The notes beneath the pieces were generated by a model, which saw only the letters and a list, made by a program, of their open reading frames with translations, searched no databases and was not told where the DNA came from. Source: a phage. From it: a DNA stretch of 64,000 nucleotides. Positions 3,461 through 27,673 of this stretch are shown here, piece by piece; position 1 is the first letter of the stretch; every line of letters starts with the position of its first letter. The position numbers and the translations under genes were made by a program. The stretch lies in the sequence record PZ357121.2. The stretch is one strand, 5' to 3'.

Positions 3461-3684
3461 TCTAGTTCCTTTGCTGCTTCAAGAGCAACATCCAGCGAAT
3501 CAAATTGGTCTACGAAATCAATATTCAACGCATCATCAACCGTAGCATATAACCACCATTGTTTGAATTCGTATTCTAGAATAAATCCAGGACCTTCAAT
3601 CTGAGGAAGACCTAGGCTATTTGTACCAACTTCGTAACCAGCTAGACGCAGGTCATTAATCAAAGTTTCTGTTAATACGCTCAT
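3457..3684 (-). CDS. hypothetical acidic protein
   Basis: ORF track 75 aa; overlaps neighbours by 4 nt. Confidence 0.5.
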   Translation of the reverse strand: MSVLTETLINDLRLAGYEVGTNSLGLPQIEGPGFILEYEFKQWWLYATVDDALNIDFVDQFDSLDVALEAAKELE

Positions 3685-4013
3685 TTTGCCGCCTTAACAA
3701 TTTTCAGGTCAACGAATTTTTTCTTACGTTGATTTTTCATACGACGGATAGTCTTTTCAGAGATTTCATGTTTCTGATAAGCTTTAGATTCAACACCAAA
3801 TGCAGCAACGTCAAATTCAGAAAGAATATATTGTACTAGAATTTCACGAATAGAATTACGTCCAATTTTCTGGTCGTGTTTTTGCATGATTTCATAAAGA
3901 CGGAATTCCCACGCATCAAGAACTTGAGGAGTAACAATATTGCCAGATTCCAGAAGAGCAACAACTTTATCGAAAGCGAAAGAATTAACTACGTTTTTGA
4001 TTTTAGTAGACAT
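3681..4013 (-). CDS. hypothetical protein
   Basis: ORF track 3681..4061; start moved to ATG at 4013 (MSTKIKN) because upstream codons overlap the promoter hairpin; GAGGAAA upstream. Confidence 0.5.
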   Translation of the reverse strand: MSTKIKNVVNSFAFDKVVALLESGNIVTPQVLDAWEFRLYEIMQKHDQKIGRNSIREILVQYILSEFDVAAFGVESKAYQKHEISEKTIRRMKNQRKKKFVDLKIVKAAK

Positions 4014-4040
4014 ATTATTTTCCTCGGTTATTTTATTATC

Positions 4041-4080
4041 CAACGAGAGAATTATACTCATCTCTCAAGAGTTTGTATAC
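4041..4080 (-). promoter_or_regulatory. early-type promoter with -10 TATAAT between inverted arms GAGAGA/TCTCTC (copy 1 of a ~50-bp repeat)
   Basis: minus strand GTATACAAACTCTTGAGAGATGAGTATAATTCTCTCGTTGGATAATAAAA; second copy at 35440-35486. Confidence 0.55.
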
Positions 4081-4319
4081 TATTTTTTAAGCATGAAAAG
4101 TAAGTAATTTGTATCACGTGGAGTAATATCAACACCCATATCAAAGATGCCTTTATAGATTGGGTATTTGTTTTCGGTTGTATCGAAGCTGAAACTATTT
4201 CCATCACAACTAACAGTAATAGCATCTGTTAAAATGTCATACTCAATCCTAACAATTGAATCCCCAATTTTAACGTCGAGGTGTTTTTTGAATTTGATAA
4301 AATCTAATTCTTGGGCCAT
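4080..4319 (-). CDS. hypothetical protein
   Basis: ORF track 79 aa. Confidence 0.5.
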   Translation of the reverse strand: MAQELDFIKFKKHLDVKIGDSIVRIEYDILTDAITVSCDGNSFSFDTTENKYPIYKGIFDMGVDITPRDTNYLLFMLKK

Positions 4320-4340
4320 GATATTTTCCTCATTTTAAGA

Positions 4341-4380
4341 CGATAGGAAGATAATAACATGTCTTCCTATCGTTGTACAT
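4341..4380 (-). promoter_or_regulatory. early-type promoter embedded in 11-bp inverted repeat CGATAGGAAGA/TCTTCCTATCG
   Basis: minus strand ATGTACAACGATAGGAAGACATGTTATTATCTTCCTATCG. Confidence 0.5.
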
Positions 4381-4382
4381 TA

Positions 4383-4583
4383 TTAACCGAACTTTTTAGC
4401 GCCTTTCCAGCCTTCGTACATAACTGCACAAGTCAGTAGTACAGCGTGCTGGCATTCTTTGTATTTGTAAATCCAGAACCAGCGTAAGAAGTCTTCATCC
4501 TCAACGCCGTTGAGTTTCATATTGGCAAAGAATTCGGCACGTTCTTCACGAAGCTTTTGCGATAACATAGATTCAGGATTCAT
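4383..4583 (-). CDS. hypothetical protein
   Basis: ORF track 66 aa. Confidence 0.45.
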   Translation of the reverse strand: MNPESMLSQKLREERAEFFANMKLNGVEDEDFLRWFWIYKYKECQHAVLLTCAVMYEGWKGAKKFG

Positions 4584-4714
4584 TTTGTGTTCCAGGCCCC
4601 ATTTTCATCGATGAACTTAATCCAGTCATTTACAGACCATTTAGTTGTATCACCCTTTGGATTAACATTTAAAGTATATAATCCCTGCTTAAAAAGCATT
4701 CGTTTGATATTCAT
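4580..4714 (-). CDS. hypothetical small protein
   Basis: ORF track 4580..4807; start moved to ATG at 4714 (GAGGAAA upstream), 44 aa. Confidence 0.3.
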   Translation of the reverse strand: MNIKRMLFKQGLYTLNVNPKGDTTKWSVNDWIKFIDENGAWNTK

Positions 4715-4721
4715 AATTTCC

Positions 4722-5015
4722 TCAACTGTAACGATAACATTCGTTAGCTTTACGTTTGGCTTCAGTATGAGAAGTATTATAATCATACTCTTCTTTACTG
4801 TAAACATCTTTTTTCAACTTACGAACTTCTTTGCGGAGTTGTCGATTCATTTCATTCTTGACTTCAGAATCAACGCCTTTCATACGCTTCCATTTATCAG
4901 AGCGGAATATGTTTTCAACCATGTCTTTGTGGCTAACACCGTCAGGAGCTTTACGCTTACCAAAATAGTCGTAATCGCGAACTTTCAAATCTTTACGACG
5001 ATATGTTTTACCCAT
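4722..5015 (-). CDS. hypothetical basic protein
   Basis: ORF track 4722..5042 (TTG); ATG at 5013-5015 with GAGGT upstream gives 97 aa. Confidence 0.5.
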   Translation of the reverse strand: MGKTYRRKDLKVRDYDYFGKRKAPDGVSHKDMVENIFRSDKWKRMKGVDSEVKNEMNRQLRKEVRKLKKDVYSKEEYDYNTSHTEAKRKANECYRYS

Positions 5016-21892: not shown

Positions 21893-22195
21893 TTAGATAG
21901 ATGTAGGCTCTAATTTTATTTTCATGAACTCAGCAAATTGTCTGGCAGTTTTTATGCCTTGTTCATGACATTCAAATGCATCATCACAGGGGCTATTTTT
22001 GTAATGCTTTGCCATATACTTATAGAATTTTTCAGAATTCTCGACATTTTGAATTTCAAACAAAGTATATACGTTTTTAATCCCTGATTCCATAAAGTTA
22101 TCAAAATATGGGTCGATATATGCAGTACCAACGATAGGAGTTGTTGCTGCAAAAAACCCCAGCATCGCCATGACAGCTATCGCTCTTAAGGCCAT
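21893..22195 (-). CDS. rI: lysis inhibition regulator rI (antiholin-like, signal-anchor N-terminus)
   Basis: 100 aa; similarity to my recollection of T4 RI (AMLG...DPYFDNFMESGIKNVY...PCDDAFEC...FMKIKLE). Confidence 0.8.
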   Translation of the reverse strand: MALRAIAVMAMLGFFAATTPIVGTAYIDPYFDNFMESGIKNVYTLFEIQNVENSEKFYKYMAKHYKNSPCDDAFECHEQGIKTARQFAEFMKIKLEPTSI

Positions 22196-22207: not shown

Positions 22208-22420
22208 TTAATTTTGGCCAGTATTTATTTTTCGCCTTTGGACGGCCTTAACATCTGTGAGGTATTTTTCCAGCTTGCGCTTGCGTGTATAATCAGCTTT
22301 AGAACCAGTTTGACGGATATCCTCGTTTAAATGAGAAATAGAATGACCTAATTCTCTTCGGATTTCATCCAATTGGGTTACAGTAAGATTACGAAGTTGT
22401 CTTTCGTTTAATTGCTGCAT
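22208..22420 (-). CDS. hypothetical protein (rI.1 position)
   Basis: ORF track 70 aa. Confidence 0.5.
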
Positions 22421-22447
22421 ATATACCTCTTGGTTAGATATTAGTAT

Positions 22448-23029
22448 TTATAACAACCCTGTCAAATCGTTCCAATGCTTCCGGCATAATGACACATATC
22501 TATCGGTATCACCAATTTCAATTTGACTGCCATCTGTAATTGGAAGTCCGTCTTCCGTGACTCTAGCTACCATTGTGGCCTTTTTACCACAATGACAGAC
22601 ACCTTTAAGTTCAACAAGCTTATCGGCAATAGCCATTAATGCTTGAGAACCTTCAAATAGATTACCTTTAAAATCTGTTCGTAGTCCATATGCCATTACC
22701 GGCACATTGTATACGTCAACAATACGACTAAGTTGATACACCTTTTCAGTAGTTAAGAACTGAGCTTCATCAACAAATACACAGTGAATATCCTTTTGTG
22801 CTGCAGCCCATTTATAGAATTCAAAGATATCCATGTCTTTTGTAATTATATTGGCATCCTGACGAATACCAATACGAGAGACTATTTCACCTTTTGAATC
22901 ACGAGTATCAATAGCCGGTTTAAGAACTAATACACCCATGCCACGTTCTTTATAGTTATGTGCGGCAGTAAGTAATGAAGCAGACTTACCAGCGTTCATA
23001 GCGGCATATGTAAAAATTAAACTAGCCAT
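22448..23029 (-). CDS. tk: thymidine kinase
   Basis: 193 aa; P-loop AAMNAGKSASLL; zinc-binding C-terminal CHCGKKA...SLCRKH. Confidence 0.9.
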   Translation of the reverse strand: MASLIFTYAAMNAGKSASLLTAAHNYKERGMGVLVLKPAIDTRDSKGEIVSRIGIRQDANIITKDMDIFEFYKWAAAQKDIHCVFVDEAQFLTTEKVYQLSRIVDVYNVPVMAYGLRTDFKGNLFEGSQALMAIADKLVELKGVCHCGKKATMVARVTEDGLPITDGSQIEIGDTDRYVSLCRKHWNDLTGLL

Positions 23030-23037
23030 AAGAGTCC

Positions 23038-23223
23038 TTATTCGGTAATTCGTTCTAAATAATCATCCAATGCTTTTTGAGCATCTTCCAATTCTTGTGT
23101 TGCAAGTTGTTTTGCCAGTTTAGACGAGAAATACGATGAATGTTCCCATTCATAAGCTTGTTCTGCTAACCGTATTTCATTAGACAAATAAATTATTTCT
23201 TCTTTCTGTTGGCGAGTAATCAT
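23038..23223 (-). CDS. hypothetical protein
   Basis: ORF track 61 aa. Confidence 0.45.
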   Translation of the reverse strand: MITRQQKEEIIYLSNEIRLAEQAYEWEHSSYFSSKLAKQLATQELEDAQKALDDYLERITE

Positions 23224-23402
23224 AACGAATTCACATAGTTAATGAGTTCTTGCTCTTTCCTGTCAAATGATTCCATCAATGCTTGATATTCTTCGTCTGA
23301 TAACGGGGCGTATTCGTCGTATGTGGCTGTACCCGCCTGCTCATCCAAAAGGTCGTGAATGAGTTCAAATAATTTAGCTTTTTCTTCTTTAGTCAATTTC
23401 AT
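23220..23402 (-). CDS. hypothetical acidic protein
   Basis: ORF track 60 aa. Confidence 0.45.
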   Translation of the reverse strand: MKLTKEEKAKLFELIHDLLDEQAGTATYDEYAPLSDEEYQALMESFDRKEQELINYVNSL

Positions 23403-23605
23403 TTAGGTTCGCCTTCTTTAACGAAATCTGGATAAGGGCAAAATCCTGAGTAAAACCCTTCACCTTTATGATTGTTACAACCCTTGTTCGAGCAATAGCA
23501 CCAATAATCAAAATCACAAGCCATTTCGTCATTGCATAGAGCAAATACTACAGGCCATTCGCACTTTTCGCATTTAGCGCCTAGAAGAATTTTTGTTTGA
23601 CTCAT
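23399..23605 (-). CDS. hypothetical Cys-rich small protein
   Basis: ORF track 23399..23626; ATG at 23605 gives 68 aa; 12 Cys. Confidence 0.45.
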   Translation of the reverse strand: MSQTKILLGAKCEKCEWPVVFALCNDEMACDFDYWCYCSNKGCNNHKGEGFYSGFCPYPDFVKEGEPK

Positions 23606-23814
23606 AACCACGTCACCTGCATGCAATATTCTTCGACATGCTTTTTACGACCTTTCTTATCGATAAAGGTGTATTCCATAAAGCGGCCATGATAACGACG
23701 TTCAACATCATGTGGGGTATTAATAGGACACTTAGTCTGGCGAATTTCTTCCCATTCACGAATAATGACTGCTTTATTCTTCGGGTCATACGGGTGAGGA
23801 TAATGTACATTCAT
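23602..23814 (-). CDS. hypothetical protein
   Basis: ORF track 23602..23829; ATG at 23814 gives 70 aa. Confidence 0.45.
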   Translation of the reverse strand: MNVHYPHPYDPKNKAVIIREWEEIRQTKCPINTPHDVERRYHGRFMEYTFIDKKGRKKHVEEYCMQVTWL

Positions 23815-24308
23815 AACAATGGTTCCCAATCAACAATCACAATTTCTAGTTTAGTGGAATACGTATCAAGAATTTCTTCAATGATATCCCAGTTTCCACC
23901 ACCTATACCTGCACCAATTCTCGGCATATAAATCACAGGCTTTGTTATTTTATTCTTTCCGAATTCATTTAATTCTATTATACAATTCATTAAAGCATAG
24001 TACTCGAAATTAGGTCCCGGCTCAAACTGTGTATAAAGATTAAAGCAATAAGCTTTATGGGTCTTAAAATATTTTTCATAAACCGAATAAGTCCCGAGTT
24101 TAGTCTCATCACCGAATTCGGTTTGAAGTTTATCTGCTTCTAAAATTTTTGGATAAGCCTTTGCTAATTGTCCTGCTACACCGGAACCCATTGTATGAAA
24201 ACAATTACACCCATGAGCAATATTATTACCTTTAGAAAACAGGGCGACAATATCGCCCTTGATATAGTTTTTAATCACTTGCTGCAAGTCCTCTATTATA
24301 AGAGTCAA
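23811..24308 (-). CDS. macro-domain-like protein (putative ADP-ribose binding/processing)
   Basis: 165 aa; NIAHGCNCFHTMGSGVAGQL resembles the macro NAAN...GGGV motif and PVIYMPRIGAGIGGG the second glycine-rich loop; motif-level only. Confidence 0.45.
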   Translation of the reverse strand: MTLIIEDLQQVIKNYIKGDIVALFSKGNNIAHGCNCFHTMGSGVAGQLAKAYPKILEADKLQTEFGDETKLGTYSVYEKYFKTHKAYCFNLYTQFEPGPNFEYYALMNCIIELNEFGKNKITKPVIYMPRIGAGIGGGNWDIIEEILDTYSTKLEIVIVDWEPLL

Positions 24309-24618
24309 CTAGACGGTCCACCATAGAATTGCATGCTGCCTTATCTTTAGGTTCCGCCACCGAGCATTCTAATATTTGCCATTTTTTATAGTATCTTTTA
24401 ATTAAGGTAGACGCCTTGAACCTACTAGACGCCCCATCTTTTTCTCCGTCTTTATACGCATATAACAATTTTTGTGAAAAATCTACTTTACACTCTTGAC
24501 TTTTACCACAATAATCAGACGCCGTTCTGTTTGTATACTCCGTTACATCAGTATATGTAGTATTAGCAAGAGCGCTAAATGAAACCAAGCCAACTATTAA
24601 AGCCAACATTTTGGTCAT
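24271..24618 (-). CDS. hypothetical secreted protein (signal peptide, 4 Cys)
   Basis: 115 aa; N-terminal MTKMLALIVGLVSFSALA. Confidence 0.5.
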   Translation of the reverse strand: MTKMLALIVGLVSFSALANTTYTDVTEYTNRTASDYCGKSQECKVDFSQKLLYAYKDGEKDGASSRFKASTLIKRYYKKWQILECSVAEPKDKAACNSMVDRLVDSYNRGLAASD

Positions 24619-25157
24619 TCTTTTATTTCCAGTAGTTTATTTGATTTAAGGTAATTAGCCTTTTCTAGGACTTCAGAAGCATATTTACTTCCAGCACTTG
24701 TCTTCCATCCCGCATTATATGAGGATATAGCTTTTCTTATATCCCCATTATGTATATTTAACCAATAAGAAAATTCGATATAAGCCCATCTGGCTGAATT
24801 AGACCGCTTAGATAGCATTTTCTTAATTTGGGCATCAGTCATATTATAACCAAGTTGGTTAATTCTTGCCCTCATTGTTGGTAGATAATTTTGGAACATT
24901 CCATACGCATGGTGACCTTTCTTATCTTTAAGATTAATACCGGCAGATGATTCCTGCCATAGTATTGCGGCCATTATGTATCCAAGTCCTTTCTTATGCA
25001 TATTTTCATGCGTTTTAAATTTTCCGTCCTTAGAAAACTGTTCCCCAAACTGATAAGCATAATTCAAGTTATCGAGTTGGACATTACTAAAAGTATGCTC
25101 GGAGCTATGTGCTGATAATGAAAGAGCAAATAGACCAGCGAGTAGTGCTTTTCTCAT
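24615..25157 (-). CDS. secreted lytic transglycosylase-like protein (SLT domain)
   Basis: 180 aa; signal peptide MRKALLAGLFALSLSAHS; AILWQESS...AYGMFQ resembles the SLT catalytic Glu-Ser and GLMQ motifs. Confidence 0.5.
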   Translation of the reverse strand: MRKALLAGLFALSLSAHSSEHTFSNVQLDNLNYAYQFGEQFSKDGKFKTHENMHKKGLGYIMAAILWQESSAGINLKDKKGHHAYGMFQNYLPTMRARINQLGYNMTDAQIKKMLSKRSNSARWAYIEFSYWLNIHNGDIRKAISSYNAGWKTSAGSKYASEVLEKANYLKSNKLLEIKE

Positions 25158-25165
25158 GTTTACCT

Positions 25166-25624
25166 CTAGATTTTAATCACTGCTTTAGAAGCTTTTCCTG
25201 GTAGTCGTTTACTGTTAATAATAGCCATTCTGCATTGAAGAGTCTTCATTTTGAATGCTGGATTTTCGCGACAAACTGTAAGTCCTAACCAAAGATTTCC
25301 ATCAGTTATTTCTAAACGGCCTGGGCGATATTCGACACCTTCGACAAAATCTTCATCAACATCTGGACGTGCCGGCATTGATAAAAATTCTGCAACTTCT
25401 TTAACATGATTTTTTACTTTACGAAATAATTCAAAAACGTAATTCTCATCTATTTCTCTCTGGATGGCACGATCTAAGAGATGTTGAGAATACTTGATAT
25501 GAAAGCCTGGTAGTCCAAGAGACTTTGCAGCATCTTTTATACTGGCATTTATTTTGCGGAACTCCGTTTCAAAGATTCGACGGAGTTTATTGCGGCGGAT
25601 AAAAACGTCTGAATTGATAGCCAT
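25166..25624 (-). CDS. regB: endoribonuclease RegB
   Basis: 152 aa; similarity to my recollection of T4 RegB (FIRRNKLRR...YSQHLLDRAIQREID...CRMAIINS.RLPGKASKAVIK). Confidence 0.8.
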   Translation of the reverse strand: MAINSDVFIRRNKLRRIFETEFRKINASIKDAAKSLGLPGFHIKYSQHLLDRAIQREIDENYVFELFRKVKNHVKEVAEFLSMPARPDVDEDFVEGVEYRPGRLEITDGNLWLGLTVCRENPAFKMKTLQCRMAIINSKRLPGKASKAVIKI

Positions 25625-25632
25625 TTTGATTT

Positions 25633-25681
25633 CTCCTCTAGTTGACAGGTCTATAGTAACACAACTAGAGGAGAAGTAAAC
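25633..25681 (-). promoter_or_regulatory. early-type promoter inside 12-bp inverted repeat CTCCTCTAGTTG/CAACTAGAGGAG; 3' arm is the regB Shine-Dalgarno
   Basis: minus strand GTTTACTTCTCCTCTAGTTGTGTTACTATAGACCTGTCAACTAGAGGAGAAATCAAAATG. Confidence 0.55.
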
Positions 25682-25980
25682 TACTCTTTGAAAGGAATTA
25701 ACTTTTTAACTGCTTTAGATACTTCGTCACGAACCTGGTGGAAGTTCTTGAGCTGTTCAAGGCGTTGTTCGTAATACGCAATCTCATCTTCTTCAAGACA
25801 ATCGTCAGCGTCTTCTTTCAGATATGCCTTGTACTCATTAAAGAGGGCCCATAGGCGGTTCTCAAAGTCATCAAGGCTTTGAATTTTCTTGTGCTTCGGA
25901 ACAAGGCCAAAAGGATTGCTTTCAGTTATGCGTCTAGATGCTTCATAATGAGTTCCAAAGCCTGATAGGATTTGAGCCAT
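25681..25980 (-). CDS. hypothetical acidic protein
   Basis: ORF track 99 aa. Confidence 0.5.
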
Positions 25981-26246
25981 TAGTATTTTTCCTCAGGTCG
26001 AAATACTGCACGACAGGCCCACATGCTGGCTTCTTTTAGATGTTGCTTAGCATACTTAAGAGCCTGTACTGCATCCATATCTTCTTTGGTTTGTTGCTCT
26101 GTTTCATTTTCTTTCAAGATATATGCTTCTTCAATCAGAGCATCAAACAACAATCCAAGACGGACTTCTGCATCTTTAATAGCGTTCACTTTACCGATTT
26201 TATCATCGGTATGCGGCTTGTAGCCTTTGATGTCTTCAATCGACAT
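25980..26246 (-). CDS. hypothetical protein
   Basis: ORF track 25980..26414; ATG at 26246 (MSIEDIKG) with GAGGAAA upstream gives 88 aa. Confidence 0.45.
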
Positions 26247-26460
26247 AAGGAATTTCCTCATCGGTGGCAAGGTCATATTCGACCAATTGGATAGGCTCAT
26301 TAATACCATATCCACGTACAGTGATATCAGTTGTCGGATAGTTTCCAGTAATATCACCCATTCTAAATGATTCAATGAATGATTGCTCGCCTGAGCAACT
26401 AAACCAGGCGGCAAAACATTTTAAAACATCTTCAGACCCTTCTATAATCAATTTAGCCAT
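26236..26460 (-). CDS. hypothetical acidic protein
   Basis: ORF track 74 aa. Confidence 0.45.
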   Translation of the reverse strand: MAKLIIEGSEDVLKCFAAWFSCSGEQSFIESFRMGDITGNYPTTDITVRGYGINEPIQLVEYDLATDEEIPYVD

Positions 26461-26822
26461 TATAGACTCTCAGTAAAGGTGCGAGCGATAACGTCACGCT
26501 GCTGTTCCGGAGTCAGAGAGTTAAAGCGAACTGCATAACCGGATACACGGATGGTCAGCTGCGGATATTTTTCCGGATGCTTAACTGCATCTTCCAGAGT
26601 TTCACGACGCAGAACGTTAACGTTCAGATGTTGACCACCTTCAATTTTAACTTTAGGTTGATGTTCAATTTCAATTTCACGGGCATTCAAACCGTAGAAA
26701 ATTTCTGGGTCTACAATAGCGTCTTCTTTAAAAGTCTTAGAGACAATAATCCGGGCTTGAGTACCGTCTTCAAAATAAATAGTGCCTTTGTGTGTGCCTT
26801 CAAGAATTTGATATGCTTTCAT
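26460..26822 (-). CDS. autonomous glycyl radical cofactor (GrcA/YfiD-like)
   Basis: 120 aa; C-terminal half [61 protein letters not shown] matches the glycyl-radical domain (RVSGY) of E. coli GrcA as I recall it. Confidence 0.85.
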
Positions 26823-26828
26823 ATAACC

Positions 26829-27137
26829 TCAATTAGAAAATAAATTTATCCAAGTTTTTTCTTTAATCAAAAATGGGTTGGAATTAAACACCATTAAACT
26901 TTGAGTGATTAATCCCTTAAATGGCCCATCAATAAATTCCATTTTGAAATGTGGAATACTAGTCATCAACCGTGCATTAGGAGCAGTACAAAGAACCTGC
27001 TGACCTGCGAACGGACCTTTAGTCAAACGATATCGTTTAGGTTTAAAATGGTAAATCTCATAATTTTCTACAAGAGCCCTTTTATTGCATACCGGGCTAT
27101 TATAACAATATTCAAAAACTTCAATAGTGGTCATCAT
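26829..27137 (-). CDS. hypothetical protein
   Basis: ORF track 26829..27200; likely start at internal Met about 27137. Confidence 0.4.
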   Translation of the reverse strand: MMTTIEVFEYCYNSPVCNKRALVENYEIYHFKPKRYRLTKGPFAGQQVLCTAPNARLMTSIPHFKMEFIDGPFKGLITQSLMVFNSNPFLIKEKTWINLFSN

Positions 27138-27673
27138 TGCATTCCAATCACAAAAAATTGAGGACGAGCAATACCGCCGTTGCAATATTTGCTTTTGCAA
27201 CAGTGTTGGACTGTTTTAATATGTACATTGTAAATCTTATCCATATCAGGAGCTTTAATAGGCTCGTCAATTATATACAGAATACGAGAAAGCGTTAATC
27301 CACGGAATTTAGAACCTTCATTGCCAATAAAACTACGAACAGAATCAGTAAATAAACGGAATCGAATATCGTCGCTAGAATAACGAGAAAATTCTTTTTC
27401 AATGTTGCCAGCAGAAATTTTAGCATAAGCTGAAGTATTAGAAAGAACAATAACCGTTCCACCATCATACAGCCAATTAGCAGCAAAGTTAGTCACAGCA
27501 ATTGATTTACCTGATTGTCGGCCACCGTCTAAACGAAGTGTACAGTACTGCTTGAGTACGTCTTCAAACGGTGGGACATAACCGTTCTTACAAATTTCTT
27601 CTACTCTAGCATCAGAATGGTGTGTAAAAGCATTCATCAGGGATAGATAAGGTCCAGTTAAAAATGTTCTCAT
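27134..27673 (-). CDS. hypothetical P-loop NTPase
   Basis: ORF track 27134..27709; ATG at 27673 gives 179 aa; Walker A DGGRQSGKS, Walker B ILYIIDEP. Confidence 0.5.
   Translation of the reverse strand: MRTFLTGPYLSLMNAFTHHSDARVEEICKNGYVPPFEDVLKQYCTLRLDGGRQSGKSIAVTNFAANWLYDGGTVIVLSNTSAYAKISAGNIEKEFSRYSSDDIRFRLFTDSVRSFIGNEGSKFRGLTLSRILYIIDEPIKAPDMDKIYNVHIKTVQHCCKSKYCNGGIARPQFFVIGMQ

Follow-up and report, generated by a model that had tools for sequence, protein, structure and literature searches.

Gene order and identity of the locus

The window analysed here, a 64,000-nt stretch of phage DNA (sequence record PZ357121.2), contains three overlapping open reading frames at 23811..24308, 24271..24618 and 24615..25157, all on the minus strand and all with the peptides quoted for them in a first-pass annotation that had been made from the letters alone. 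Coordinates and peptides are confirmed, and profile matches and homologues rule out chance reading frames. The genes, which that annotation had left unnamed, are tk.4/adfM, vs and vs.1 of phage T4. Nucleotide identity of the region to sequenced E. coli phages is 97%, and by this sequence evidence the source is a T4-like phage (Mosigvirus). Identity to the T4 orthologues is 85% for Tk.4, 67% for Vs, 82% for Vs.1 and 75% for RegB, and the gene order is syntenic with T4 as well. The features discussed below are the following.

25166..25624, minus strand: regB endoribonuclease, the co-directional upstream neighbour, given for context (Pfam REGB_T4, E 3e-69)
24615..25157, minus strand: vs.1, 180-aa exported GH23/SLT-type lytic transglycosylase-like protein (PHROG 600, E 4e-67; 82% identical to T4 Vs.1)
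25104..25157, minus strand: predicted Sec signal peptide of Vs.1, residues 1-18 MRKALLAGLFALSLSAHS, cleavage before Ser19 (heuristic; 67/70 distinct homologues)
24951..24953, minus strand: Glu69 codon of Vs.1, presumed single catalytic acid in the E-S motif (invariant; coordinates verified)
24271..24618, minus strand: vs, 115 aa, annotated valyl-tRNA synthetase modifier; predicted exported four-helix bundle with Cys C37, C43, C85 and C96 (PHROG 1256, E 1e-35; 67% identical to T4 Vs)
24565..24618, minus strand: predicted Sec signal peptide of Vs, residues 1-18 MTKMLALIVGLVSFSALA, cleavage before Asn19 (heuristic; 55/57 distinct homologues)
23811..24278, minus strand: tk.4/adfM, free-standing macrodomain protein, 155 aa, probable GTG start (85% identical to T4 Tk.4; Pfam Macro)
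24204..24206, minus strand: Asn25 codon of Tk.4 (equivalent to DarG Asn22 and PhiKZ AdfM Asn23)
24027..24029, minus strand: Gln84 codon of Tk.4 (column of DarG Lys80, TARG1 Lys84 and, transitively, SCO6735 Gln85; coordinates verified)

In the direction of transcription the order is regB, vs.1 (180 aa), vs (115 aa), tk.4 (the macro gene), tk.3 and on to tk. Genes of the block overlap by 4-8 nt: vs.1/vs and tk.4/tk.3 share an ATGA each, and tk.4, with its GTG, begins 8 nt before vs ends. Among the 81 loci compared, regB is found upstream of vs.1 in 52. A promoter and terminator scan of positions 22300-27300 yielded fewer promoter-like sites than shuffled sequence (11 versus 17.7) and did not define a transcription unit. 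Computed in this analysis were the assignments of orthologues, domains and folds, the conservation of residues and of gene order, and the export signals.

The macrodomain protein Tk.4/AdfM

Translation of the macro gene probably starts at GTG 24278, which gives 155 aa, rather than at TTG 24308. This GTG occupies the position of the T4 tk.4 ATG, and the starts annotated in KP869101 and T4 are identical in position. The ten-residue extension that a start at TTG 24308 would add is conserved only in the closest relatives, and this candidate was rejected. Hence the stop and frame of the originally proposed ORF 23811..24308 stand, while its start is an upstream extension of the conserved one.

Pfam Macro (PF01661) matches residues 32-146 of the long ORF with 28.9 bits (cut-off 22) over profile positions 2-117 of 118, and a macro homologue is present in 2796 phage records. 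The DarG macrodomain is the sole match both in NCBIfam and in PADLOC; on the DarG model NF048014 Tk.4 scores 29.7 bits against a cut-off of 250, over model positions 4-146 of 338. Sequence matches in the PDB are BT1257, Poa1p (E 2e-8), SCO6735 (6e-5), DarG (5e-4) and TARG1. With a Pfam score above threshold, DarG as the only NCBIfam and PADLOC match and these PDB relatives, the macro fold read from glycine-rich motifs in the first-pass annotation is supported. An AF2 model of T4 AdfM was reported to match M. tuberculosis DarG with a probability of 99.7% (10.1101/2025.11.20.689424). The ADP-ribose-binding loops are recognizable as G31-S-G33 after strand 2 and the diphosphate loop P119-R-I-G122-A-G124-I-G-G-G-N-W130; the 22 homologues aligned and TARG1 all have G33, P119, G122, G124 and W130. 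T4 Tk.4 shares with the window protein 85% identity, length, place between vs and tk.3 and the conserved residues, and differs by its ATG start in place of GTG and by 23 substitutions.

A 2025 preprint named T4 Tk.4 AdfM (anti-DarT factor, macrodomain) and found that a tk.4 knockout renders T4 sensitive to DarTG2, the single match of that screen; of ADP-ribose removal by the T4 protein it says only that 'it seems likely' (10.1101/2025.11.20.689424). Enzymology has been demonstrated only for the AdfM of PhiKZ, which bears the same name and is of the Lys type (PMC13309987). The idea that the window protein reverses DarT-type ADP-ribosylation of DNA, raised from the sequence before any search, fits the published knockout phenotype of the 85%-identical orthologue; it was right but not new, since the T4 result had been published earlier. 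On this evidence Tk.4 of the window phage most likely reverses thymidine ADP-ribosylation by DarT2. The protein would be a free-standing cytoplasmic macrodomain of the ALC1-like class (TARG1/DarG/SCO6735) that binds the ADP-ribose put by the host toxin DarT2 on thymidine in single-stranded phage DNA. Hydrolysis of the ribose-base bond would then restore replication and neutralise the DarTG2 defence.

How the reaction might proceed is suggested by a single column of the alignment. Tk.4 is without the catalytic Lys equivalent to DarG K80 and has Gln84 instead: in two alignments Thr83-Gln84 falls in the DarG K80/TARG1 K84 column, and it is invariant or nearly so in the Tk.4 family, where Asn25 is nearly invariant too. 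Gly126 stands in the column of TARG1 D125, and the Lys/Asp dyad of TARG1 is absent. A Gln at the DarG K80 position together with a missing dyad is the SCO6735 pattern, and the C-terminal loop of Tk.4, GAGIGGGNW, matches GCGLAGGTW of SCO6735. The equivalence of Tk.4 Q84 and SCO6735 Q85 is transitive, via TARG1 and DarG, as the direct match displayed covers the C-terminal part only. The TARG1 sequence was checked against PDB 2lgr, and DarG was represented by one Mycobacterium protein (392 bits on the NCBIfam DarG model) from a tblastn search of plasmids with Tk.4. That search returned for the most part orphan macro proteins.

SCO6735 strips thymidine-linked ADP-ribose from DNA in a Gln85-dependent manner, the Q85A mutant being dead (PMC9411070). 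The Tk.4 family resembles this enzyme in having a Gln throughout where DarG and TARG1 have the catalytic Lys, and since that Lys is replaced by an invariant Gln (Q84) we infer that Tk.4 catalysis follows the SCO6735 route. Gln84 would position the distal ribose for attack by an activated water, and no lysine Schiff base would be formed. SCO6735 (Streptomyces coelicolor, PDB 5e3b, ALC1-like) has in common with Tk.4 the Gln and the loop G-x-G-[IL]-[AG]-G-G-x-W, but its sequence is distant, and it serves a bacterium in housekeeping or stress rather than a phage in counter-defence. The DarG macrodomain (T. aquaticus 5m31/5m3e, M. tuberculosis 5m3i) and PhiKZ AdfM (gp104) agree with Tk.4 in fold class and substrate logic. 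They also share the conserved Asn (DarG N22, PhiKZ N23, Tk.4 N25), mutation of which to Ala lowered the activity of PhiKZ AdfM (N23A; PMC13309987). They part from Tk.4 in having a Lys (Lys80 in DarG, Lys78 in PhiKZ AdfM) where Tk.4 has Gln84, and DarG has in addition a C-terminal DarT-binding domain that Tk.4 lacks. Neither such a domain nor an adjacent darT gene was found for Tk.4 (155 aa; neighbours vs and tk.3). By the alignments, the Gln-for-Lys exchange in the whole Tk.4 family is what the present analysis adds to the known AdfM story. With an SCO6735-type Gln in T4-type AdfM and a Lys in DarG and PhiKZ AdfM, phages appear to have turned macrodomains of two different mechanisms against one and the same defence.

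Other activities have to be weighed for a protein of this fold. PHROG 335 and the T4 RefSeq record label Tk.4 a 'phosphatase', in line with the older 'A1pp phosphatase' annotation, by which it would be an ADP-ribose-1''-phosphate phosphatase that disposes of a side product from RNA repair or tRNA splicing and does not act on DNA. Poa1p, the yeast enzyme with this activity, is indeed closer to Tk.4 than DarG is (E 2e-8 versus 5e-4) and has the H-x-C-N-C motif in common with it. However, the label is a domain transfer only, both activities are often seen in vitro for macrodomains of this class, and the phenotype of the T4 orthologue, sole match of its screen, is DarTG2-specific. To our knowledge, RNA repair in T4 (PseT/RnlA) generates no Appr-1''-p, and we consider the phosphatase function very improbable. 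That Tk.4 instead erases ADP-ribose from proteins or RNA, tuning Alt/ModA/ModB marks or countering other ADP-ribosylating defences, or blocks DarT2 by binding and not by catalysis, seems to us improbable. SCO6735 and TARG1 do de-ADP-ribosylate proteins as well, and SCO6735, DarG and TARG1 can inhibit DarT through interaction even after loss of catalysis (PMC9411070). Against this, DarTG2 sensitivity is the only phenotype reported for tk.4 insertions across the screened conditions, and N25, Q84 and the diphosphate loop stay invariant even in distant homologues, as expected of an active site under selection.

Vs.1 and Vs, two proteins with predicted signal peptides

The N-termini of Vs.1 and Vs both have a basic n-region, a hydrophobic core of 12-13 residues and an A-x-A/S site after residue 18. 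In Vs.1 the signal reads MRK + ALLAGLFALSLS + AHS|S (best 10-residue hydropathy 2.42) and in Vs MTK + MLALIVGLVSFS + ALA|N (2.77), both values from heuristics on composition, hydropathy and cleavage site and not from SignalP. The signal peptide is kept despite sequence drift in 67 of the 70 distinct Vs.1 homologues and in 55 of the 57 distinct Vs homologues. The signal peptides originally assigned to the 115- and 180-aa ORFs thus find support in composition and conservation, on heuristic grounds.

For Vs.1 we found 128 homologues. Its motifs are E69-S70-S71, G86-M-F-Q89 and S146-Y-N-A-G150; among 37 homologues no change is seen in WQESS, GMFQ and SYNAG, residues E69, S71, G86, Q89, Y147, N148 and G150 included. 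Pfam SLT (PF01464) gives Vs.1 18.8 bits (E 1.3e-3), below its gathering cut-off of 21.3; several homologues carry a precomputed PF01464 match. The fold search returned the lysozyme-like GH23 fold (with a weak Foldseek E of 0.016), so that motifs and fold agree on the SLT reading proposed earlier for this ORF. The same proposal had called a periplasmic transglycosylase of this kind unusual, which does not hold within this phage family: T4-like phages have Vs.1 as a conserved protein, and its similarity to SLT has long been in the literature. In the literature searched we found no report of peptidoglycan cleavage by Vs.1, and a role in entry or lysis control is pure speculation.

Vs.1 would leave the cytoplasm via the Sec pathway, shed its 18-residue signal peptide and, once in the periplasm, act as a minimal lytic transglycosylase of family 1 (GH23). 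Glu69, as the single catalytic acid, would cut MurNAc-GlcNAc bonds to leave 1,6-anhydro-MurNAc ends. T4 Vs.1, EtgA, MltE/EmtA and the catalytic domain of Slt70 have in common with it the single-domain SLT fold, the E-S, GxxQ and YNAG motifs and a signal peptide. Compared with the small GH23 enzymes (EtgA, MltE/EmtA, Slt70), Vs.1 is longer at the N-terminus by about 40 residues (helix 25-38 and a loop), which are conserved only in the phage family; it has no lipobox and is encoded outside any secretion-system or lysis cassette. It is unlikely, in our view, that Vs.1 is a catalytically silent peptidoglycan binder or a hydrolytic g-type lysozyme and not a lytic transglycosylase. Its Pfam SLT score is under the cut-off, and in the fold search g-type lysozymes and a GH23 chitinase scored as strongly as lytic transglycosylases, but the invariant Glu-Ser, G-x-F/Y-Q and Y-N-A-G motifs argue for an active site. 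Within GH23, g-type lysozymes use a second conserved acidic residue. Vs.1 has none after Glu69 (D77 varies), which favours lytic transglycosylase chemistry.

Described at first merely as a secreted Cys-containing protein, the 115-aa ORF is the annotated valyl-tRNA synthetase (ValRS) modifier Vs, whose homologues carry PF26829 (ValRS_modifier). It shares with T4 Vs (PF26829) 67% identity, length, position and the overlaps with vs.1 and tk.4, and we noticed no difference between the two. Its AF2 model (pLDDT 85) has helices at 16-37, 41-64, 69-85 and 90-114, with the signal segment as the disordered, low-pLDDT part. Vs would be a four-helix bundle with two disulfide staples, produced by translational coupling directly after Vs.1 and exported. 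The whole family, T4 Vs included, has a signal peptide or lipobox and two predicted disulfides, at odds with the annotated cytoplasmic role. The signal peptide, the lipobox variants and the four conserved Cys argue for export of Vs. Together with a vs gene that abuts vs.1 in 57 of 81 loci, they fit a periplasmic protein and not a cytoplasmic synthetase binder. Predicted export contradicts the textbook cytoplasmic function and is, judged from these signals, the one real oddity of the region. In our literature searches no paper turned up that places Vs in the periplasm or mentions a signal peptide in it.

It is possible, if tentative, that Vs and Vs.1 form a functional pair in the periplasm, with Vs as an exported regulator, inhibitor or partner of Vs.1 or of another envelope target, and with the ValRS-modifier assignment secondary, indirect or due to a mis-assigned ORF. 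Beside the signal peptides (55 of 57 distinct homologues, some with a lipobox, MKKLFVLLVVFALSGC), exactly four Cys are present in the mature part of 49 of these 57, and in the wider family four Cys and two Gly are the only invariant residues. In the 57 abutting loci, that of Acinetobacter phage ZZ1 included, the distance between the stop of vs.1 and the start of vs is -8 to +7 nt, and in 8 further loci vs lies 0.5-1.2 kb downstream of vs.1, but Vs.1 occurs without a detectable Vs in the other 16 of the 81, and tight overlap is usual among all T4 early genes. In T4 transposon data from LB, insertions in vs and vs.1 are about 10-fold under-represented (mean reads 26.6 and 22.6, versus 178.6 for regB and 289.6 for tk.4) and fall further in minimal medium; this common phenotype could, however, arise if insertions in vs.1 have polar effects on vs. 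In the E. coli cytoplasm, His-tagged Vs of full length proved insoluble (PMC8076793). Mature Vs would be 11.0 kDa, and its fold and sequence relatives give no hint of an inhibitor function. In work by Neidhardt, Marchin and co-workers, vs mutants reportedly neither modify ValRS nor rescue temperature-sensitive ValRS hosts in vivo, which implies cytoplasmic action and speaks against the pair. We therefore propose only with reserve that the Vs family consists of exported, disulfide-stapled periplasmic proteins (lipoproteins in some lineages) working with or on co-translated Vs.1, that the minimal-medium defect of vs mutants reflects an envelope function, and that the ValRS assignment needs re-examination.

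A conserved prereplicative block and its significance

Taken as a whole, the region is very likely the conserved prereplicative block regB-vs.1-vs-tk.4 of a T4-like Mosigvirus, in which Tk.4 is an anti-DarT2 macrodomain, Vs.1 an exported lytic transglycosylase and Vs the annotated ValRS modifier, predicted to be exported. Two phenotypes come from the literature, the DarTG2 sensitivity of T4 tk.4 mutants and the recent fitness effect by which T4 vs matters in minimal medium; the catalytic mechanisms, actual export and any link between Vs and Vs.1 are what we infer. As ordinary, previously described genes of T4-like phages, tk.4/adfM, vs and vs.1 are already known, and the finding adds little since it re-discovers three named T4 genes. 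The macro ORF serves as a confirmation case, in which an anti-DarT macrodomain was correctly predicted from the sequence alone; its experimental validation, in T4, dates from 2025. The difference between T4-type and PhiKZ AdfM could matter to specialists, and so could Vs, whose signs of export and tight genetic tie to a predicted periplasmic peptidoglycan enzyme put the textbook annotation in question.

Gene order and start codons of the locus

The window comes from a T4-like phage: over 23400-25700 its identity is 97.3% with Escherichia phage LH01 and 95.7% with O157 typing phage 3, a classified Mosigvirus. All ORFs of the finding lie on the minus strand, and comparison with the annotated T4 record gives the transcription order regB, vs.1, vs, tk.4, tk.3, tk.2, tk.1, tk.

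Genes of the locus (window coordinates; identities are to the T4 proteins)
25166-25624, minus strand: regB, 75% identity to RegB
24615-25157, minus strand: vs.1, 180 aa, 82% identity to Vs.1
24271-24618, minus strand: vs, 115 aa, 67% identity to Vs
23811-24278, minus strand: tk.4, 155 aa, 85% identity to Tk.4
23602-23814, minus strand: tk.3, 70 aa from an ATG overlapping the tk.4 stop; Cys/His-rich, Pfam DUF7202 (E 4e-37)
22448-23029, minus strand: tk, by gene order in the annotated T4 record

Stop and start codons overlap as ATGA at vs.1/vs and at tk.4/tk.3, and the GTG start of tk.4 falls within vs, 8 nt from its end. While the ORFs proposed in the first-pass annotation exist, their strand had to be corrected, as did the start of the macro ORF: the first in-frame TTG (24308) was rejected, since the conserved protein begins at GTG 24278, which occupies the position of the ATG of T4 tk.4 and is the start in GenBank records of close relatives. 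Just past this GTG, ~20 nt inside the 5' end of tk.4, there is an 8-bp GC-rich hairpin (24241-24259, minus strand; AGGGCGATATTGTCGCCCT, then GTTTTCT), which may be a chance occurrence or a translational or RNA-stability element. Terminator-like sites in the region number 6 versus 3.0 in shuffles, a modest excess.

Two other neighbours deserve mention. The 120-aa ORF at 26460-26822 (minus strand) is T4 vs.6, an autonomous glycyl-radical cofactor (GrcA-like), and is so annotated in T4 and KP869101. The 100-aa ORF at 21893-22195 (minus strand) has a hydrophobic N-terminal segment (MALRAIAVMAMLGFFAATTPIVG); by its position relative to tk it should be rI, the lysis-inhibition antiholin, and its sequence points to another exported or membrane protein of the neighbourhood.

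Tk.4 and its active site

Tk.4 matches Pfam Macro with 28.9 bits, above the threshold of 22 bits, and the only family that it matches in NCBIfam (E 3.7e-7) and PADLOC (E 1.8e-8) is the N-terminal macrodomain of DarG, the antitoxin of the DNA-ADP-ribosylating defence DarTG2. Its solved relatives by sequence (BT1257, yeast Poa1p, SCO6735, human TARG1 and the DarG macrodomains of T. aquaticus and M. tuberculosis) place it among the ALC1-like macrodomains. The older label 'phosphatase' was discarded as a domain-name transfer. An anti-DarT function had been guessed at first pass, and the guess is correct, since it is already published for the T4 orthologue: in a 2025 preprint, tk.4 was the single hit when T4 transposon mutants were screened for growth on a DarTG2 host, a result confirmed by a clean knockout, and the gene was named adfM and proposed to strip the ADP-ribose of the DarT2 toxin from DNA (10.1101/2025.11.20.689424). 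T4 without adfA and adfN is still DarTG2-resistant, and a further factor had been predicted (PMC11825919).

How such an enzyme might work was approached by aligning 22 members of the Tk.4 family with TARG1 (sequence checked against PDB 2lgr) and with a genuine DarG, which the NCBIfam DarG model scores at 392 bits. Where TARG1 has Lys84 and DarG has Lys80, the Tk.4 family has a nearly invariant Gln84, directly after an invariant Thr83; Gly takes the place of TARG1 Asp125, and the Asn is kept as N25. A DarG-type enzyme was rejected, as neither the catalytic Lys nor the DarT-binding domain was present when each was looked for. Streptomyces SCO6735 likewise lacks both catalytic residues and has Gln85 at the Lys position; it removes thymidine-linked ADP-ribose from DNA by a proposed water-mediated mechanism, and its Q85A variant is dead (PMC9411070). 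The diphosphate loop of Tk.4, GAGIGGGNW, is also closer to GCGLAGGTW of SCO6735 than to the loops of TARG1 or DarG. The PhiKZ protein that is also called AdfM and de-ADP-ribosylates DNA in vitro (PMC13309987) shares the Asn (Asn23) but retains Lys78 where Tk.4 has Gln84. On the strength of Gln84, the Gly at the Asp125 column, the loop and the retained N25, we file Tk.4 as the T4 AdfM orthologue, putatively working like SCO6735.

Vs.1, Vs and the question of export

The N-terminus of Vs.1 (MRKALLAGLFALSLSAHS/SEH) resembles a cleavable Sec signal peptide, and so does that of 67 among 70 distinct homologues, drawn from 81 viral loci, despite sequence drift of the segment. E69, S71, G86, Q89, Y147, N148 and G150 are among the residues that stay invariant in 37 homologues with identities as low as 40%; they make up the E-S, G-x-x-Q and Y-N-A-G motifs typical of family-1 lytic transglycosylases. 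The signal peptide and SLT-type motif noticed at first pass are borne out.

Fold-search matches of Vs.1 (score)
MltF: 12.2
P. aeruginosa Slt: 11.7
Ralstonia GH23 chitinase: 11.6
Salmon g-type lysozyme: 11.2
E. coli Slt70: 10.9
MltC: 10.8
EtgA: 10.2

Foldseek points the same way, at weak E-values. Vs.1 has no further conserved acidic residue after E69, which favours a predicted lytic transglycosylase rather than the chemistry of a hydrolytic lysozyme. Its similarity to SLT is not new, having been published in 2003 and repeated in 2006 (PMC1524935), nor is such a protein unusual within the family, as had been supposed, since vs.1 is conserved across T4-like phages from enterobacterial ones to those of Acinetobacter and Aeromonas. 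Several GenBank and UniRef entries call Vs.1 'endoribonuclease RegB' or 'site-specific RNA endonuclease' (e.g. KP869101, 4216-4758), and Vs is often labelled 'valyl-tRNA synthetase' instead of its modifier, or 'tail fibers protein' in one record; these are annotation-propagation errors.

The 115-aa protein, described at first pass as secreted and Cys-containing, does have a predicted signal peptide and cysteines; its identity as the T4 'valyl-tRNA synthetase modifier' Vs (PHROG 1256, E 1e-35) had been missed. In 55 of 57 distinct homologues the N-terminus combines a basic residue with a hydrophobic core and a cleavage site of small residues, and in 49 of the 57 the mature part contains exactly four Cys. 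One lineage carries a lipobox (…ALSGC/K; MKKLFVLLVVFALSGC), the mark of a lipoprotein.

Vs family members with signal peptide and four Cys (own coordinates for each locus)
Window, 24271-24618, minus strand
Acinetobacter phage ZZ1 (L004), 4025-4354
L036-L038 and L061, ~3549-3875

In the wider family four Cys and two Gly are the only invariant positions. The Vs model, with pLDDT >90 except in the signal peptide, is a bundle of four helices. Its first helical hairpin is flanked by C37 and C43 and its second by C85 and C96, the pattern expected of two stapling disulfides formed in the periplasm. Sequence and fold searches returned no Vs relatives of known function, and the literature searched gave no mention of signal peptide, Cys or lipobox in this family.

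Of the 81 loci with vs.1, 57 have a Vs homologue whose start is -8 to +7 nt from the stop of vs.1; in 8 others, from RB43/RB16-like genomes, the homologue is 0.5-1.2 kb downstream, and the remaining 16 lack one. In ZZ1 the pair overlaps by one base, and Vs has the signal peptide and four Cys once an upstream ATG is used; the product of the gene after vs (4351-4782) also has a signal peptide (MKIKAVLLSLLFLVSPGVFA). Aeromonas phage 31 (L005) has no detectable vs, and a predicted lipoprotein (4368-4808; MKKSIATLIAIGMYGC) follows vs.1 with one small ORF between. The slot downstream of vs.1 seems to collect putative exported proteins.

T4 transposon data show vs.1 to be non-essential, with insertions ~10-fold rarer than in flanking genes after LB growth; the fitness cost is common to vs and vs.1 and absent from regB upstream and tk.4 downstream (10.1101/2025.11.20.689424). 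This joint cost could reflect polarity of vs.1 insertions on vs. The vs gene is itself the most depleted T4 gene in M9-glucose, as a knockout confirmed (Data S8, log2FC -2.19), and vs.1 insertions, on whose phenotype the preprint does not comment, are depleted on E. coli CFE299 (log2FC -1.20, adjusted p 0.015; Data S8/S9) (10.1101/2025.11.20.689424). When full-length Vs is produced in the cytoplasm of E. coli with a tag at its N-terminus, it is insoluble (PMC8076793).

The signal peptide, Cys, linkage, transposon and insolubility data fit an exported Vs that may work with Vs.1, and fit poorly with a binder of cytoplasmic ValRS; the conserved signal peptides, four Cys and lipobox, as read from sequence, would contradict a cytoplasmic function. 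Classical genetics (rescue of temperature-sensitive ValRS, vs mutants) reportedly argues for a cytoplasmic effect. That the periplasm is the site of the primary function of Vs is, in our estimate, a somewhat doubtful proposition.

The finding is real and its first interpretation largely right, and the three ORFs are named, widely sequenced and already known genes of T4-like phages. What remains of value is the Gln-for-Lys active site of the T4-type AdfM and the export paradox of Vs.
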